Shown one piece after another: positions 23,618-30,923 of a DNA stretch of 64,000 nucleotides. Made by a program: the position numbers and the translations under genes. Origin of the DNA: Candidatus Helarchaeota archaeon (lineage in GTDB: Archaea > Asgardarchaeota > Lokiarchaeia > Helarchaeales > RDOG01). The DNA is taken from the NCBI GenBank assembly GCA_019058315.1, contig JAHPZH010000001.1, positions 1,073,432 to 1,137,431 on the forward strand, written 5' to 3'. Each line of letters opens with the position of its first letter. Within the stretch, counting starts at the first letter, position 1. The notes under the pieces were generated by a model, which saw only the letters and a list, made by a program, of their open reading frames with translations, searched no databases and was not told where the DNA came from.

Positions 23618-24718
23618 ATGGCAGAAAAAAATGTTCTTTTTGAGGAAATAAAAGATAGGATCAACAAAATAGTTCGAGGAAATCGATATATTATATCTGA
23701 ATTTGAAAAATTCAAAGGATCTATAGAAAATCTTCAAAAAAATATTCAAGATGTTTCTGATCCTGATAAATCTTTAGCAGAAATCAAAGATAAATTGGAT
23801 AGTCTTTCAGATTTGTTTAAATTAGGTAAAACTGTAAAAAATTTAAAACCAACTATTAATGAATTAAATGAGACTATGAAATCAATGAGTGAAATAAAGA
23901 AAACAGTAGATGATATTAAAAAAAGTGTAACTACCTTGGGGGATTTAAAATTACTTGCTTCTGAACTTAAAATGACAATGGCAGAAATTCGAGAAACTTC
24001 AAAAATAATGAAAATGGATGTAACTACTGCAGAAATTGAATTAGCTAAAATAAAACCAACTATTAAACCACCAACTATTAAACCAATAGAAAAAATAAGA
24101 CCGATTTCAAGTTCTAAATCAATAGAACAAAAAACCGTTAGTTCAGACCCCCTTACTAAAGGTCCTTTAAAAGCAAGTCCAATGTATAAAATAAAAAAAC
24201 CAGAATCAGTTACCGAAACCAAAGCTGAGTCAATTAAAACAGAACCAATCATAATAAAACCAACTACAGTGAAATCAATTAAATCAGAACCGACTATTAT
24301 AAAACCAATCACAATGAAATCAATTAAATCAGAACCGACTATTATAAAACCAATTACAATGAAATTAATTAAATCAGAACCGACTATTATAAAGCCAATC
24401 ATAAAAAATTCAAATAAAGTAGATAAAATTATAAAAGCACCTTCGAAAAAGAAAGGTATAACTCATCCGATTGTATTAGAAATTTTTCAACTAATAAAAC
24501 AACGAGCCCAGAGTGGGGAATCTGCAGAAGCGCTTTCCAAGCATATTGAGAATGCAAGAGACACGATTGCTAAAAGTTGGAAATGGCATCCTGCTTTATT
24601 GGAACTAGGGACATTCGCAAGGAAACTGAAGAAACTTCCTCCTAAAAACCCCCCATCACCCGATCTAATTAAAATTTTATTAGAAAAATTGGAAGAATGG
24701 AAAGCAAAAATGACCTAG
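23618..24718 (+). CDS. Coiled-coil protein with Pro/Lys repeat linker and helical C-terminal domain
   Basis: Heptad-rich N-terminus, 15-aa repeats, C-terminal WHPALLEL...EEWK. Confidence 0.75.
   Translation: MAEKNVLFEEIKDRINKIVRGNRYIISEFEKFKGSIENLQKNIQDVSDPDKSLAEIKDKLDSLSDLFKLGKTVKNLKPTINELNETMKSMSEIKKTVDDIKKSVTTLGDLKLLASELKMTMAEIRETSKIMKMDVTTAEIELAKIKPTIKPPTIKPIEKIRPISSSKSIEQKTVSSDPLTKGPLKASPMYKIKKPESVTETKAESIKTEPIIIKPTTVKSIKSEPTIIKPITMKSIKSEPTIIKPITMKLIKSEPTIIKPIIKNSNKVDKIIKAPSKKKGITHPIVLEIFQLIKQRAQSGESAEALSKHIENARDTIAKSWKWHPALLELGTFARKLKKLPPKNPPSPDLIKILLEKLEEWKAKMT
24231..24410 (+). repeat. Four 45-bp in-frame tandem repeats
   Basis: Unit caattaaatcagaaccgactattataaaaccaatcacaatgaaat with few substitutions, at 24231, 24276, 24321 and 24366. 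Confidence 0.9.
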
Positions 24719-25770: not shown

Positions 25771-26466
25771 TTGAAAAATATATTTGAACATATAGAAAAA
25801 ATTGCAAATATCCCTAGTATTCATCCTGAAGAAAAAAAAGTCCGTAATTTTATTATAAATGTTTTAAATTCCATGAAACGAGATTTCAAAATAGATGAAT
25901 TTGGGAATCTTTATTTGTTATCACAAGATAATTTTAAAATTTTACTCTCATCACATATGGATAAACAAGCGCCCCCATTTTTTAAAGATCTTGGGAAATA
26001 TATTCAAGGTAAACTTGATGATGCAGTAGGAATTGGGATAATTTTGAGCCTTGCACAACATTATGATTTTCCTGCTCTTTTTAGTGTAGGTGAAGAAAAA
26101 GGTTTAAAAGGTTCAAAATACGCTCTGAATAATAATCTAATCCCAAAAGTTGAAAGTGCAATTGTAATAGATACAAGTCCCTTTGGAGAACTCGGGAATG
26201 GTCCGATATTTTATACTTCTTTCGATAATAAGCAGCCATTTAACAAATTCTTAAATGAGATTTTTAATTCAGCAAAATTAATCAATGTAAATCTTCAACC
26301 TATGGATGGTTCTATCAATGATGGAGTCAATTTAATTAAAGTAATATCGGATACAGTTGCTTTGGAACCTCATATTGATAATTATCATACATCAGAAGAA
26401 ATTTCTGCAAAGATAGATATAATTAACACATATAAAGTAATAGAGCAATATTTAAAGAAAATTTAA
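25771..26466 (+). CDS. M20/M28/M42-type metallopeptidase (compact)
   Basis: SHMD, LDDAVG, GEEKG, YHT. Confidence 0.8.
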   Translation: MKNIFEHIEKIANIPSIHPEEKKVRNFIINVLNSMKRDFKIDEFGNLYLLSQDNFKILLSSHMDKQAPPFFKDLGKYIQGKLDDAVGIGIILSLAQHYDFPALFSVGEEKGLKGSKYALNNNLIPKVESAIVIDTSPFGELGNGPIFYTSFDNKQPFNKFLNEIFNSAKLINVNLQPMDGSINDGVNLIKVISDTVALEPHIDNYHTSEEISAKIDIINTYKVIEQYLKKI

Positions 26467-27983
26467 AAAAAAGAGTATAAATCTTTTTTAATCGGTCTAT
26501 CTACTTTATCTTTTATATCTTTTAACTGAATAGATTCACCCATTTTTGGCAAAATAATATTTTTAAATTTATTTCTAAACTTTTCTATCCCCTTAGTATG
26601 TATAGGAATTATATACTTTGGACTTAAAGATTCTATGGTCCTAAAAATTTCTTCCTCACTCATATGGCCTGAAGTGTGAAGATAATGATAATCAAGATTA
26701 AAAAATTTAATCCATTGAAGGTGTCTCTTGAAATCTATTGCTTGCTCTTCATTAAAAGGTTCAGTTTCTGAATGTATATAAATCCCATTTGATGGTTTTA
26801 AATCTATTAAATTTCCTAACCGAAAATAATCCATTACCATAATAAATTTATCTAAATTATCTTTAACTTCATCAAATTTAACTACATTAGGAAAGTTAAG
26901 GAAATCTCGTTCCCATTTTGAATATTCACTCCGCCTAAAGCTGCCCATCTTTTTAGGTTCTTGATAAATCCTTAAATTATTATCTTCAAGCTTAATTCCC
27001 ATATCGTCACTTAAATCGTAAATATGTTGTGCTAGTTTTAATGGAATTACTAATTTTCTGCCACTATTTTTTGCTACATCATAAAAAGTTTTTAGTCGAT
27101 CAAAATCTCTTAAACTAAAATCTATAAAGACAGGATTATTAGTCTCTTGTACTATTCTTAATGCTTTTTCTTTAAGTATTTGTTCAGAATTAATTTTTTC
27201 TTCTAATGTCTTCCCCATCAATTCTTCAATAAGATTTTTTAGGAAATCTTCCTCAGTTTCATTTCCCACATTTGTTCCTTCTATTATTAAAATATCGATA
27301 TCTCGTTCTTCTAGTTTTTTTAAAGATTGTTTCGTAAGATAACCTCTCACTCCATGTTGTCTTAAATCTCCTGTATACACTATATTCATATCGCTCGCTT
27401 CTATGATATAACCACCCGCACCCCAAACTGAATGGTCTAGATCAAAAAAATCTACCTTTATTGTTCCATTATATTTATCCCAAGTATTAAACTCTCTTGA
27501 ACATTCTTCCCATTGCGAATGATGAATATTAAAACCGTAAGGTCTTTTCTTTAAGGAACAGAATTCACTTTCTATTCCCCCTTTGGAAATGGTTTCATAG
27601 CTTTCAATTATTTTAATAGTTAATTCTGATGCAAAAATCGGGACATCTTCTCTTATAAAGGGAATATATCCAAAATGATCCATATGTGGATGTGTAATAA
27701 AAACCCCTTTTATATCGGATTCGCCCTGTTCATGACCAGTTGGGCTTATTAAATCATCTCGATAAAGATAAGGTAGATTAGGAATAAGATTAAAAAATAG
27801 ATAATCACCAATTCCCTTTGAACTACGAGGTTTCAAATATTCAGCAAAAAATTTTCTTCGGTCTTCATATGAAACGCCAAAATCAAAAAACAAAGATTCT
27901 TCTGAATCTTTAATTAAAATCTTATTTCCTCCAATTTGATTTATTCCACCATAAAGAACTATTTCTGAAGTTAATATCTCCAT
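26463..27983 (-). CDS. Metallo-beta-lactamase / beta-CASP nuclease (RNase J-like)
   Basis: GGINQIGGN, DFG, THPHMDH, DHS, YTGDL, EGT, HTSGH, PIH. Confidence 0.88.
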   Translation of the reverse strand: MEILTSEIVLYGGINQIGGNKILIKDSEESLFFDFGVSYEDRRKFFAEYLKPRSSKGIGDYLFFNLIPNLPYLYRDDLISPTGHEQGESDIKGVFITHPHMDHFGYIPFIREDVPIFASELTIKIIESYETISKGGIESEFCSLKKRPYGFNIHHSQWEECSREFNTWDKYNGTIKVDFFDLDHSVWGAGGYIIEASDMNIVYTGDLRQHGVRGYLTKQSLKKLEERDIDILIIEGTNVGNETEEDFLKNLIEELMGKTLEEKINSEQILKEKALRIVQETNNPVFIDFSLRDFDRLKTFYDVAKNSGRKLVIPLKLAQHIYDLSDDMGIKLEDNNLRIYQEPKKMGSFRRSEYSKWERDFLNFPNVVKFDEVKDNLDKFIMVMDYFRLGNLIDLKPSNGIYIHSETEPFNEEQAIDFKRHLQWIKFFNLDYHYLHTSGHMSEEEIFRTIESLSPKYIIPIHTKGIEKFRNKFKNIILPKMGESIQLKDIKDKVDRPIKKDLYSFF

Positions 27984-28075
27984 CTCCTTGAAAACGATGA
28001 ATATATCTATATTCTTATTAAAAACATTTTAATTTTTTTTACTTAATAAAATTAATAAAATTTCTGAGCATTACA

Positions 28076-28906
28076 TTATTCCTTCTTTTTTATACTAAAC
28101 CCCTTAAAAGTAGGAAATCTTGCATGTCCAGATTTTTTTGAAATTTCCATAAATTTTACTTTTGCGAAGAAATTTCCCCATCCATAAGCTTTAACTAATA
28201 AATCCAATAATTCTTTATTTTTAAAAGAGAGTAAACCAACATCTCCTATTCGGGTTTGGATACTACCATAAGAATTTTCAGTTGTTTCATTCCATCCAAG
28301 CACTTCAACCTCTAAAAATTCTTCTTTTTTTACTTTTAACCAATTTTCACTTCTGATAAATTCATAAATACTATTCAAATTTTTAACGATTATTCCTTCT
28401 CCGCCTTGAGAAGTGATTTCTTTAAAGAGTTCCTTCGGATTACCAGATACCCCTATAGTCTTAAGCATATCATTTTTCTTTACAATTTCTTCTAAAGTCA
28501 ATCTTCTCTCTTTTAAAGTTTTTTTTGTTAAGTCTTCTCCATCTAACCAAAGGATATCAAAGGCAATGTATGTTGCAGGATATCTTTTACTCATTAAATT
28601 AATCTTAAACTCATTTATTAGATGATCTCTAGTTGCCAATAAACCAAAATCGTTATTAACAATTAGTTCTCCATCCAATATGCATTCGTTACAATTTAGC
28701 CAATTTTTAATATCATTGAATTCTGGAAATTGAATTAATTTCTTATTTTTATTTCTGTTTACCATTATTATGTCATCTGAAACAAAAAATAAAATGCGAG
28801 CACCATCATATTTATTTTCAGCTATCCAATTTGAATCAAGCTTTTCAATTTCTTCTATTTTCAATGTTTTACATAACATAGGTGAAATTTGATTATAATC
28901 AAACAA
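28076..28906 (-). CDS. Minimal ATP-dependent DNA ligase (LigC/LigD-LIG-like)
   Basis: Motif I ENKYDGAR, III LDGEL, IIIa YIAFDIL, IV EGIIVK, V WLKVK, VI RFPTF; short OB domain. Confidence 0.92.
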   Translation of the reverse strand: MFDYNQISPMLCKTLKIEEIEKLDSNWIAENKYDGARILFFVSDDIIMVNRNKNKKLIQFPEFNDIKNWLNCNECILDGELIVNNDFGLLATRDHLINEFKINLMSKRYPATYIAFDILWLDGEDLTKKTLKERRLTLEEIVKKNDMLKTIGVSGNPKELFKEITSQGGEGIIVKNLNSIYEFIRSENWLKVKKEEFLEVEVLGWNETTENSYGSIQTRIGDVGLLSFKNKELLDLLVKAYGWGNFFAKVKFMEISKKSGHARFPTFKGFSIKKKE

Positions 28907-28948
28907 AATTATTCACTAATACAAAAAAATTATGAAAAAAAGGGAAAA

Positions 28949-29740
28949 TTAACCTAATTTTTCAGATACTAATAAGGATTTCTCTAGTAAACTCTTCAGA
29001 TCTTCTGTCTTTGTTGCAACTGTTTCGATTTTTTCAATTTTTATTGGTTTTCCAGCTAATGTATCTTCGATTAATGTTTCTACTTTTTCTCTAAACTCAT
29101 CCACCAATTCATTTTCATCGATTTTTTTATCTGCCAGAGATTCTATTAATTTTAATCCGAGATCTATTTCGTCCTTGCTTAATTTTTCTTCTTTAAGTTC
29201 TGGAACTTGTACAATTTCATCTGGATAATAAAGGTTTATTAGGTTCAAAACATTTTTAAAAGGCTTAATAATACCCAAATGGGTCTTGTTCCTAACAGTA
29301 TACTTTACCAGTGCGCACCTACCGCTTTTTTCTAATGTTTCTCTAAACAATGTAAATGTTTTGGTATATTTTCCATCCGGGACCAAGTAATATTGACTAT
29401 CAAATCCTCTAGAATCAATATCTTCGATTTTTTTATATCCAAGAATTTCGATATTTTCTGTATTTAAATCTTCAATGTTTTTAAGGATTTCTTTATCAAA
29501 AACCAACATTTCATCTGCTACTTGATATCCCTTTTTAAATTCTTTATACTCATACTCTCTATTACAATCTGGGCAAAAATACTTATTTTTAATAGCATGT
29601 CCTTCTGAACAAACCCTTTTAAAACTTATAGATTTACTTCTTCTTAAGGTAACTGCCTTTACGGGTATATTTACCAATCCAAATTGCAAATTCACCGTAA
29701 ATAGTGCTTTAGCACCTTTAGTTTTAGCTTTTTTCGGCAT
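28949..29740 (-). CDS. ku: Ku protein (prokaryotic-type DNA end-binding)
   Basis: LQFGLVNIPVK, ISF, CPDC, KGYQV, YYLVPD, LYYPDEI, DL..LLEKSL; GGAGG RBS. Confidence 0.93.
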   Translation of the reverse strand: MPKKAKTKGAKALFTVNLQFGLVNIPVKAVTLRRSKSISFKRVCSEGHAIKNKYFCPDCNREYEYKEFKKGYQVADEMLVFDKEILKNIEDLNTENIEILGYKKIEDIDSRGFDSQYYLVPDGKYTKTFTLFRETLEKSGRCALVKYTVRNKTHLGIIKPFKNVLNLINLYYPDEIVQVPELKEEKLSKDEIDLGLKLIESLADKKIDENELVDEFREKVETLIEDTLAGKPIKIEKIETVATKTEDLKSLLEKSLLVSEKLG

Positions 29741-29858: not shown

Positions 29859-30923
29859 CTATTTTTTGGCTTCTATGACTCTTTTACCAATTTTACAAAT
29901 TCTTTTTGCAATGTCTGATATTTTAGTTTCACTTAATGACTTTAACTTAGTTTTAAAAATGTCATTTATAGGTTCTTTCCACTTTTTAGGAATCCTTGAT
30001 TCACCAATAGATGTCCCTATAATAGCTCCTATGTTACCACAATTACAATCGGTATCGTAGCCACACATTCCAGCTATACAGATCGATTTACCCAAATCTC
30101 CATTTCCATAAAGTAGGGCAAGAATAATTATACCTATATTTGGCAAAACATGAACTCCATGAAGATTTTTATCTTGTAACATATTGAGCCGTTTGGGATC
30201 TTTAGCTTGTTTTATTAATTCATCTCTTGTTTCTTTCCAATATTTAATAATTTTCTCCCTTGCATCTCGCCAATTATCGTGTTGATTGTTTAATCTTATT
30301 GCTTTATCAATAAAACCAAAATATAAACTATTTTTAGGGATTGTTTTAATGGCAGCATCTATTAGTTTTTTTGGATCAGTCTCGTAAAATGCGGCAGAAA
30401 CGATTCTTGATATAAAAATTTCTCCAAGTATACCCTCTCCATTATGAGAAATTTCTGCATCCATCCTTCCATATTTTTCAGCAATATCTAGTTGCCCAGG
30501 AGCTATTAGTCCCCATATTTCACCTCTCATTTGTGCACCAATAAAATCTGAAAAAATGTTATTTTGAGCTCCAGAATCAGGTGGAAAGATCCCATTTTTT
30601 AAATTTTTAAAAGCCACATCCTCAGCGGTATACATATTTGTATATAATTCTTTTAACCACATTTCAGCAATATTTTTTGAGTTTAAACCAATTCCATATT
30701 TCTCGAGAGCCATCAAACCGACTATTTCAAACATTTCGTCATCATTAATAACACCCTTTCGATAAATTTTTACAAAATTATTAATTTCCCCATATTTTTT
30801 TTGAATAAATTTATAAGGGCGCATTTCTAGAGGCATTCCAAGGTAACTGCCTATACATTTACCATAAAATCCCCCATAAACTTTGTCATAATATATAGAA
30901 TCATCTAGTGGTTTTAAATTCAT
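29859..30923 (-). CDS. ADP-ribosylglycohydrolase family protein
   Basis: G..LGMPLE, NDD, GAQMR, SH, GYDTDCN. Confidence 0.85.
   Translation of the reverse strand: MNLKPLDDSIYYDKVYGGFYGKCIGSYLGMPLEMRPYKFIQKKYGEINNFVKIYRKGVINDDEMFEIVGLMALEKYGIGLNSKNIAEMWLKELYTNMYTAEDVAFKNLKNGIFPPDSGAQNNIFSDFIGAQMRGEIWGLIAPGQLDIAEKYGRMDAEISHNGEGILGEIFISRIVSAAFYETDPKKLIDAAIKTIPKNSLYFGFIDKAIRLNNQHDNWRDAREKIIKYWKETRDELIKQAKDPKRLNMLQDKNLHGVHVLPNIGIIILALLYGNGDLGKSICIAGMCGYDTDCNCGNIGAIIGTSIGESRIPKKWKEPINDIFKTKLKSLSETKISDIAKRICKIGKRVIEAKK

Follow-up and report, generated by a model that had tools for sequence, protein, structure and literature searches.

In a 64,000-nucleotide stretch of the Candidatus Helarchaeota archaeon assembly GCA_019058315.1 (contig JAHPZH010000001.1, positions 1,073,432 to 1,137,431 of the forward strand; hereafter the window), three co-oriented genes encode a Ku protein, a DNA ligase and a nuclease, and in our view this locus has an even chance of being a minimal archaeo-prokaryotic (AP-type) non-homologous end-joining (NHEJ) core accompanied by a probable end-processing nuclease. 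All three genes lie on the minus strand: ku (28949..29740, 263 aa) comes first, followed across a T-rich spacer of 42 bp (28907..28948) by a stand-alone minimal ATP-dependent ligase (28076..28906, 276 aa, TTG start) and, across a second spacer of 92 bp (27984..28075), by an RNase J-like metallo-beta-lactamase (MBL)/beta-CASP nuclease with intact catalytic motifs (26463..27983, 506 aa). Rich in AT, the second spacer has TATA-like stretches and T runs and carries AGGAG right before the ATG of the nuclease. An earlier sequence-only reading, made from the letters of the window without database searches, had proposed three co-oriented genes at these spacings, and the minus-strand open reading frames (ORFs) lie exactly so.

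The product of the first gene has a single Pfam match, PF02735 (127.8 bits, residues 20-194), and scores 176.3 bits against the NCBIfam model TIGR02772 (Ku_bact), above the equivalog cut-off of 150 and over profile positions 2-259 of 259. Prokaryotic Kus are recognized by a single core domain of ~260-300 aa and a conserved minimal C-terminal motif; the window's protein has one Ku core domain within its 263 aa, no vWA or SAP domain, and ends soon after that motif, with L252 invariant and S255 nearly invariant in an alignment of 34 Kus (A1). Using phmmer, residues 10-254 align with the Mycobacterium tuberculosis Ku structures 9i91/8v53; the structure matches were all bacterial Ku, and no eukaryotic Ku chain was found at E 0.01. 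The sequence-only reading had pointed to a basic N-terminal extension, a C..H/CxxC site and the lack of a basic C-terminal tail. All three features are there, the last two being ordinary in prokaryotic Kus. The site consists of Cys44/His48/Cys56/Cys59; C56 and C59 are invariant in a smaller alignment (A2, used for the locus search because A1 is too diverse for it), and the C/H...CxxC pattern is visible in A1 and common to many prokaryotic Kus. The paper on the Bacillus subtilis Ku structure, which we checked for a zinc site, mentions neither zinc nor cysteine. The basic tail is missing from at least 13 of the 34 Kus in A1, a type to which the window's Ku belongs, while the Lys-rich N-terminal extension (residues 1-11) is particular to the window's Ku and is shorter in its 78% identical relative.

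The ligase matches PF01068 (115.3 bits), and its best NCBIfam model is TIGR02779, the NHEJ ligase (133.6 bits, below the cut-off of 227.75, over profile positions 11-207 of 302). The TTG start is backed by the closest relative of the enzyme (61% identity, locus L140, see below), which also starts with TTG and aligns from residue 1. Nucleotidyltransferase (NTase) motifs I, III, IIIa, IV and V are present, with K32, D34, G35, R37, D78, E80, F116, D117, E170, G171, K175 and K191 invariant in alignment A5 and K193 nearly invariant. In motif VI, R263 is invariant in A5 while the enzyme lacks the RxDK end, and compared with related enzymes its OB domain is shorter by three segments. While PF04679 (OB) gives no match at E<=0.01, the AlphaFold model (predicted local distance difference test score, pLDDT, 93.4) has an NTase domain and a compact, beta-rich C-terminal OB domain (pLDDT 85-94), and its Foldseek matches are DNA ligases, including the ligase domain (LIG) of LigD (1vs0/6nhx). 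There is no DNA-binding, BRCT, polymerase (POL) or phosphoesterase (PE) domain, and ligase IV matches through the shared catalytic core only (E 4e-5). The window's enzyme and two relatives (61% and 42% identity) make up a small clade, in all members of which the OB domain is shrunken and the RxDK end lost. From motifs and model together, the enzyme is predicted to be a catalytically intact, LigD-ligase-domain-like ligase with a shrunken OB domain.

How the pair is distributed was followed in 61 class-level relatives, 400 phylum genomes (species representatives) and the 80 best Ku loci from named genomes. Ku itself is sporadic, present in three of the 61 class-level relatives and nine of the 400 phylum genomes. 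In each of the other seven phylum Ku loci whose neighbours are available, a stand-alone ligase (~280-300 aa) comes directly after ku, and in the genomes of class-mates (loci L011, L012, L050-L052, L055-L059) the two genes overlap or abut. The 78% identical Ku (L013) is likewise followed by a ligase start. Within 10 kb of the 80 named Ku genes we found a ligase in 70-72 cases, a polymerase in 62 and a separate PE gene in 24, and several archaeal loci (Thermoplasmata, Micrarchaeota, unclassified archaea) comprise Ku and ligase only. Given this conserved adjacency in relatives and named loci, Ku with a stand-alone ligase is a conserved and already familiar predicted unit of end joining. In a synteny survey of ku loci, such as the sequence-only reading had called for, a ligase adjoins Ku in seven of seven phylum loci and the nuclease in none of them.

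The accessories of LigD are largely missing. The sequence-only reading saw no LigD polymerase in the window, and this extends to the whole 5.8-Mb genome, where the best match reaches 14.9 bits (E 0.056). It also reported no phosphoesterase, a statement that stands for canonical PE, of which none was found in the genome, and that needs softening for a divergent PE-like ORF of 142 aa, 337 kb away (G000:C3:1439719-1440144; L007:1387-1815, minus strand). This ORF scores 23.4-23.5 bits against a cut-off of 31.1 and keeps five of the six catalytic residues (His, His, Asp, His and Tyr), has Ala in place of Arg52 and contains a four-residue insertion; no homologue was found in 40 relatives. Nor is there a multidomain LigD, since neither POL nor PE is fused or adjacent to the ligase. 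Other members of the phylum show a range of such sets. The single-contig genome of another class has a compact operon of Pol, Ku, a Lig::PE fusion and DUF72 (L053; G062:C1:1514000-1533999). Five Ku-positive class-mates (G028, G045, G204, G273, G275) combine overlapping ku and ligase genes with a stand-alone PE gene, which in G273 divergently adjoins ku, and no LigD polymerase was detected in these five, whose archaeal NHEJ set is thus one without Pol. That archaea can encode the Ku, Lig, Pol and PE of an NHEJ system as separate genes is established (PMC4797286). In published surveys, Asgard lineages come out with partial NHEJ sets only (10.1101/2023.09.30.560322).

The closest known counterpart is the AP-NHEJ of the Methanocella paludicola type (PMC4797286, PMC3082917), with which the window's locus has in common a single-domain Ku, a stand-alone ligase of LigD-LIG type adjoining ku, an archaeal setting and a sporadic distribution. 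In contrast to that system, no AEP polymerase was found in the window's genome, the only PE-like ORF is divergent and unlinked, the OB domain of the ligase is shrunken and without its RxDK end, and an RNase J-like nuclease follows. When set against bacterial Ku-LigD (M. tuberculosis, B. subtilis; PDB 8v53, 9i91, 9vnq, 1vs0), Ku aligns near its full length, including the LigD-contacting C-terminal motif, and the ligase has the catalytic motifs. Identity is however ~28-35%, Ku has the Lys-rich N-terminal extension and not the basic extended tail, and the ligase stands alone, with neither POL nor PE attached. In M. tuberculosis the C-terminal region of Ku binds both the POL and LIG domains of LigD (PMC13717202, PMC9638933), with C-terminal residues touching the ligase domain (PMC13717202). 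Since that region binds LIG as well as POL, it is plausible by analogy that Ku contacts the ligase directly even where there is no POL domain. Family membership and conserved adjacency lend good support to a predicted Ku-ligase end-joining core in the window, one that is ordinary for Ku-bearing archaea though unusually divergent.

This divergence is most evident in Ku. Among 5.8 billion proteins the nearest relative is the one at 78% identity, on a contig of 1.1 kb, and all others are at or below 36%. In the tree, the window's Ku and this relative sit on a very long branch, while the Kus of class-mates cluster with other archaeal Kus. Forcing the window's Ku and the other Asgard Kus into one clade was marginally rejected (approximately unbiased, AU, test, p=0.025), a value to be read with the long branches in mind and with the fact that the group was chosen for testing after the first tree had been seen. 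By profile, tree and distribution the Ku gene is of prokaryotic type, patchy and fast-evolving. Because the ku-ligase pair is sporadic, highly divergent and not co-inherited with the Ku of class-mates, it was probably acquired horizontally and separately from theirs.

The third gene encodes a beta-CASP nuclease with MBL motifs 1-4, beta-CASP motifs A, B and C and a two-domain fold. D34, H98xH100xD102H103, H184, D206, E235, H440 and H462 are invariant in alignment A3. Family models match in part: Lactamase_B_2 and RMMBL (23.7 bits, cut-off 21.6) are found, the Pfam Beta-Casp model is not detected, and the score against RNase J (TIGR00649), 72.6 bits, is far under the cut-off of 400, so that the protein does not rank as an RNase J by score. 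The AlphaFold model (pLDDT 79.9) best matches 2az4, an uncharacterized Enterococcus faecalis protein (EF2904; E 3e-22, template-modelling score 0.81 by target), then archaeal (5ws2) and bacterial RNase J and then CPSF73, with a match probability of 1.00 for 2az4, RNase J and CPSF73. Artemis/SNM1 proteins appear neither in the top 50 Foldseek matches nor among phmmer matches at E<=0.01. Two further canonical beta-CASP proteins in the genome, of aCPSF1/2 type, pass the Pfam Beta-Casp cut-off; the window's nuclease is thus an additional one, and no bona fide RNase J was found elsewhere in the genome.

At beta-CASP motif C, a His marks the RNA-type branch and a Val the DNA-acting Artemis/SNM1 enzymes, a rule that reportedly goes back to Callebaut and co-workers in 2002. 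The sequence-only reading had recognized the His of this motif (PIH), which alignment A3 places at His462. An archaeal RNase J, however, cuts single-stranded DNA as well as RNA and belongs to a complex on which recovery from DNA damage depends (PMC10470531), and by this analogy the His would be compatible with a repair role of the window's nuclease. The nuclease thus agrees with RNase J and 2az4 in its best sequence and fold matches, its MBL motifs 1-4 and its beta-CASP motifs A, B and C(His), and differs from them in a context of DNA break repair rather than RNA metabolism and in a unique C-terminal tail. This tail, ~20 aa long (26466..26525, minus strand), is missing from nine aligned family members (56-61% and 46-47% identity). 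It ends KKDLYSFF, a PIP-box-like pattern, and residues 493-506 have pLDDT below 50 and are predicted to be disordered. The tail could be a recruitment motif. A predicted complex of nuclease residues 447-506 with the PCNA of the window's genome (19-row alignment) scored 0.20 against a mark of 0.32, a result that counts neither way.

The company of the nuclease in other genomes also bears on its role. The closest relative of the window's ligase lies on a 3.2-kb contig of a metagenome-assembled genome (MAG; L140, GCA_964549415.1), where Ku (49% identity), ligase (61%) and nuclease (51.5%) follow one another just as they do in the window, all on one strand. There the Ku-ligase spacer is 53 bp and the ligase-nuclease spacer 628 bp, with no ORF above 54 aa; this second spacer (L140:1503-2130) may hold a degraded gene or a non-coding element. 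Beyond this locus, the nuclease belongs to an orthologue group (56-61% identity, tree support 100/100) whose members stand beside double-strand-break machinery. On a Helarchaeota-labelled MAG contig (L143) the order is nuclease, a 428-aa gene, HerA, Mre11 and Rad50. On a Lokiarchaeota-labelled MAG contig (L144) and two others (L146, L147) it is an HFX_2341-like gene, nuclease, NurA and HerA(-Mre11-Rad50), with gaps of ~110 bp, and on another (L145) it is PIN, nuclease, GIY-YIG, NurA-like and HerA, with DruA also present. In four contigs the nuclease therefore lies directly upstream of a nurA-herA(-mre11-rad50) operon, and a fifth has it close to nurA/herA; an eighth, short contig with an orthologue has an HFX_2341-like neighbour only. 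As a control, 80 metagenomic loci of paralogues at 27-37% identity, among the matches listed, gave only two marginal matches to any of these neighbour genes. In all, the nuclease occurs beside double-strand-break machinery in about four independent arrangements. A relative at 46% identity on a Hadarchaeales MAG (JAWCKY010000046.1, L151) has, within 3 kb, genes for a stand-alone LigD Prim-Pol, an endonuclease V and a member of the AP endonuclease 2 family. We did not find a break-repair association of this orthologue group described in the searchable literature.

The protein that adjoins several orthologues is of HFX_2341_N/DUF6293 type with a winged-helix C-terminus (L144:6860-7987, L147:757-1902, L146:1-564, L281:1787-2149), and the window's genome has a homologue of it on contig C2 near 229344. 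The genome also has a [377 aa, no Pfam match]-HerA-Mre11-Rad50 operon of its own, without the nuclease (G000:C3:1180295-1186396; L152:6296-12397), ~80 kb from the locus and ~44 kb past the end of the window.

Several points weigh against tying the nuclease to break repair in general and to Ku in particular. Neither the seven other Ku loci of the phylum nor the 80 named ones have such a nuclease beside Ku, from which it follows that Ku and ligase work without it elsewhere. L144, L146 and L147 form one lineage and are counted once, which leaves about four independent contexts, not seven. The HerA and Mre11 proteins beside the orthologues are only 22-30% identical to one another and to the copies in the window's own genome (22-29% for the latter comparison), and the window and L140 may be fairly close kin, in which case their common order is partly inheritance. 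The contexts of L145 (DruA) and of a more distant relative at 45-46% identity (L148; PglZ, methyltransferase, EVE) resemble defence islands. The spacer before the nuclease contains promoter- and terminator-like AT/T runs in the window and is 628 bp long in L140, and the protein is RNase J-like by sequence and fold, with a His motif C, not Artemis/SNM1-like. Because of the runs in the 92-bp spacer, a ku-ligase-nuclease operon remains putative, and the three genes may or may not be transcribed together.

Much of this can be explained if only Ku and ligase act together, as an ordinary archaeal NHEJ pair, and the nuclease is an RNA-processing RNase J-like enzyme in an accidental position, an account that we consider rather unlikely. 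It would fit the 87 Ku loci that lack the nuclease, the RNase J-type motifs and fold, and spacers of 92 and 628 bp that could hold a promoter of their own. With no bona fide RNase J elsewhere in the genome, the nuclease could also substitute for one. The broad nuclease family is present in 60 of the 61 class relatives, at or below 40% identity and irrespective of Ku. The orthologue group, on the other hand, is rare, with no member beyond the window's own genome among the 400 phylum genomes at E<=1e-85, unlike a housekeeping RNase. An accidental position also sits poorly with a trio that recurs in L140 at only 49-61% protein identity, and with about four independent break-repair arrangements set against two marginal matches in 80 paralogue loci. 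The sequence-only reading had allowed that the linkage of the nuclease might be incidental, and that caution is justified by the 87 other Ku loci, while the trio in L140 and the orthologues beside nurA-herA-mre11-rad50 speak for more than chance. The nuclease is probably not a random neighbour of the Ku-ligase pair, and a functional link between them is partly supported. In a search for an insertion scar, the genes around the locus in the window were compared with those around the nuclease paralogues of relatives, and no neighbours were shared. In many class relatives two RNase J-like paralogues form a divergent pair (for example, G032:C4:239531-242615, G048:C18:120393-123539 and G052:C27:134267-137387), with up to seven matches per genome, several of them with in-frame stops.

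Our best reading of the locus, then, is that a lineage-specific break-repair nuclease has been recruited to a patchily acquired, Pol-less Ku-ligase core. A homodimer-type Ku would bind the broken DNA ends and engage the ligase through its conserved C-terminal arm, much as M. tuberculosis Ku engages LigD LIG, and the small ligase would seal the Ku-bound ends. The nuclease may act on DNA ends or RNA/DNA hybrid ends at breaks and, in cooperation with Ku and ligase, would supply the trimming activity for joining in place of the missing LigD POL/PE accessories. Ribonucleotide-containing ends are made and resected in AP-NHEJ (PMC4797286). Gap filling would fall to other polymerases or the replicative primase (PMC12019639). 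More tentatively, and as a possibility that we rate below an even chance, the RNase J-like orthologue group as a whole could be a hitherto unrecognized double-strand-break end-processing nuclease of Asgard-type archaea, working either in the homologous recombination resection operon or with Ku and ligase; equally tentatively, it would then be a functional analogue of Artemis/SNM1 drawn from the RNA-type branch of the beta-CASP enzymes. Artemis, SNM1 and PSO2 belong to the same superfamily, and the proposed role of trimming ends for Ku-dependent joining is analogous, whereas the window's nuclease has His and not Val at motif C and no DNA-PKcs partner.

Genetic linkage of an ATP-dependent ligase with an MBL/beta-CASP exonuclease has a precedent among prokaryotes in the bacterial 'ligase-associated DNA damage response' cluster, which consists of Lhr-Core, MPE, an ATP ligase and a beta-CASP exonuclease. 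The MPE of this cluster has been described (PMC7826289). The window's locus differs in that its nuclease has no NCBIfam match to the exonuclease family of the cluster (E<=0.01), in that no Lhr or MPE gene is nearby, and in the presence of Ku.

It is also conceivable, though improbable, that the three genes are a cassette from or for mobile elements or defence, whose task might be, for example, to circularize or shield linear DNA or to process DNA of foreign origin, and not to mend the chromosome. The distribution is patchy for Ku, for the ligase and for the nuclease orthologue group, and relatives of the nuclease occur in defence-island-like contexts. The third-closest ligase in the 5.8 billion proteins (42% identity, shrunken OB) is encoded on a JGI contig (L142; 3300043569, Ga0453687_000579) that also carries genes for a short Ku, PCNA and a DNA methyltransferase. 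In the first 12.9 kb of its 30.5 kb, this contig has dozens of tiny ORFs along with genes for TrmB, the short Ku of 187 aa, the 274-aa ligase, PCNA, the DNA methyltransferase and a beta-helix protein; it is virus- or plasmid-like and may be a mobile carrier of the shrunken-OB ligase type. Against a mobile origin of the window's locus, no tRNA or integrase-like gene was found near it, GC is even (~27-29%) with no compositional break, and the flanks are ordinary chromosomal genes on a contig of 1.48 Mb. The viral sequences of IMG/VR contain no Ku relative above 31% identity, no ligase relative above 27% and no match to the nuclease, and PADLOC 2.0 gave no match at E<=0.001 for Ku, ligase, nuclease or the adjacent ADP-ribosylglycohydrolase.

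A reading of the locus as ancestral to eukaryotic NHEJ, in which a module of this kind gave rise to Ku70/80, ligase IV and Artemis, is very improbable: the superfamily-level parts list is equal (Ku, ATP ligase, beta-CASP nuclease, in an Asgard-type genome) and one preprint raises, as speculation, the possibility that NHEJ in Asgard lineages is eukaryote-like (10.1101/2023.09.30.560322), but Ku passes a bacterial-Ku equivalog model, matches only bacterial Ku structures, occupies a long orphan branch whose grouping with other Asgard Kus was rejected by the AU test and occurs in only nine of 400 phylum genomes, the ligase is profile-closest to the LIG domain of LigD, and the nuclease is RNase J-like. 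The locus is not a eukaryotic classical NHEJ system, since there is no vWA-type Ku and no ligase with a DNA-binding domain and BRCT. Of the end-joining system with a eukaryote-like parts list that the sequence-only reading had put forward, the Ku-ligase core holds up, and 'eukaryote-like' survives as analogy only: there are no Ku70/80 features, and neither the ligase nor the nuclease resembles ligase IV or Artemis. The resemblance is best described, on the evidence of these comparisons, as analogy and not ancestry, and since each of the three proteins is of prokaryotic type and patchy in distribution, the locus does not bear on how eukaryotic NHEJ arose.

Upstream of ku and co-oriented with it is a gene for an ADP-ribosylglycohydrolase of 354 aa (29859..30923, minus strand; PF03747, 153.7 bits), which we take as a neighbour only. 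It was considered as a member of the module and set aside, as the 78% identical Ku of L013 has no such gene upstream of it and none was found in the 80 named Ku loci. A 765-aa protein from a Logan contig of 3378 bp (P0324) fuses a distant RNase J-like beta-CASP part to a C-terminal ADP-ribosylglycohydrolase domain. These are the two domain types that flank Ku and ligase in the window, the ADP-ribosylglycohydrolase parts not being closely related. Elsewhere in the window, a 366-aa ORF (23618-24718, plus strand) has a sub-threshold match to BLOC1_2 (30.2 bits, cut-off 33.4). At NCBI, homologues bear labels such as Lokiarchaeota, Helarchaeota and Promethearchaeota, in keeping with a Lokiarchaeia-type Asgard archaeon. 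The genome represents a deeply branching lineage, with a PCNA that shares only 32-48% identity with the PCNAs of its nearest sampled relatives. The sequencing runs that contain the stretch are all DNA metagenomes from sediment and soil, with no RNA run among them.

For most archaea, little is known of how broken DNA ends are joined or trimmed, and the locus offers a clonable pair of Ku and minimal ligase from an Asgard-type genome. If the nuclease acts on DNA or RNA-DNA ends, it would be a new accessory enzyme for archaeal double-strand-break repair and a convergent parallel to Artemis, and the beta-CASP rule that His means RNA would be no predictor of pathway. The chief interest of the locus is a small RNase J-like family that is accompanied by two different kinds of DNA break repair.

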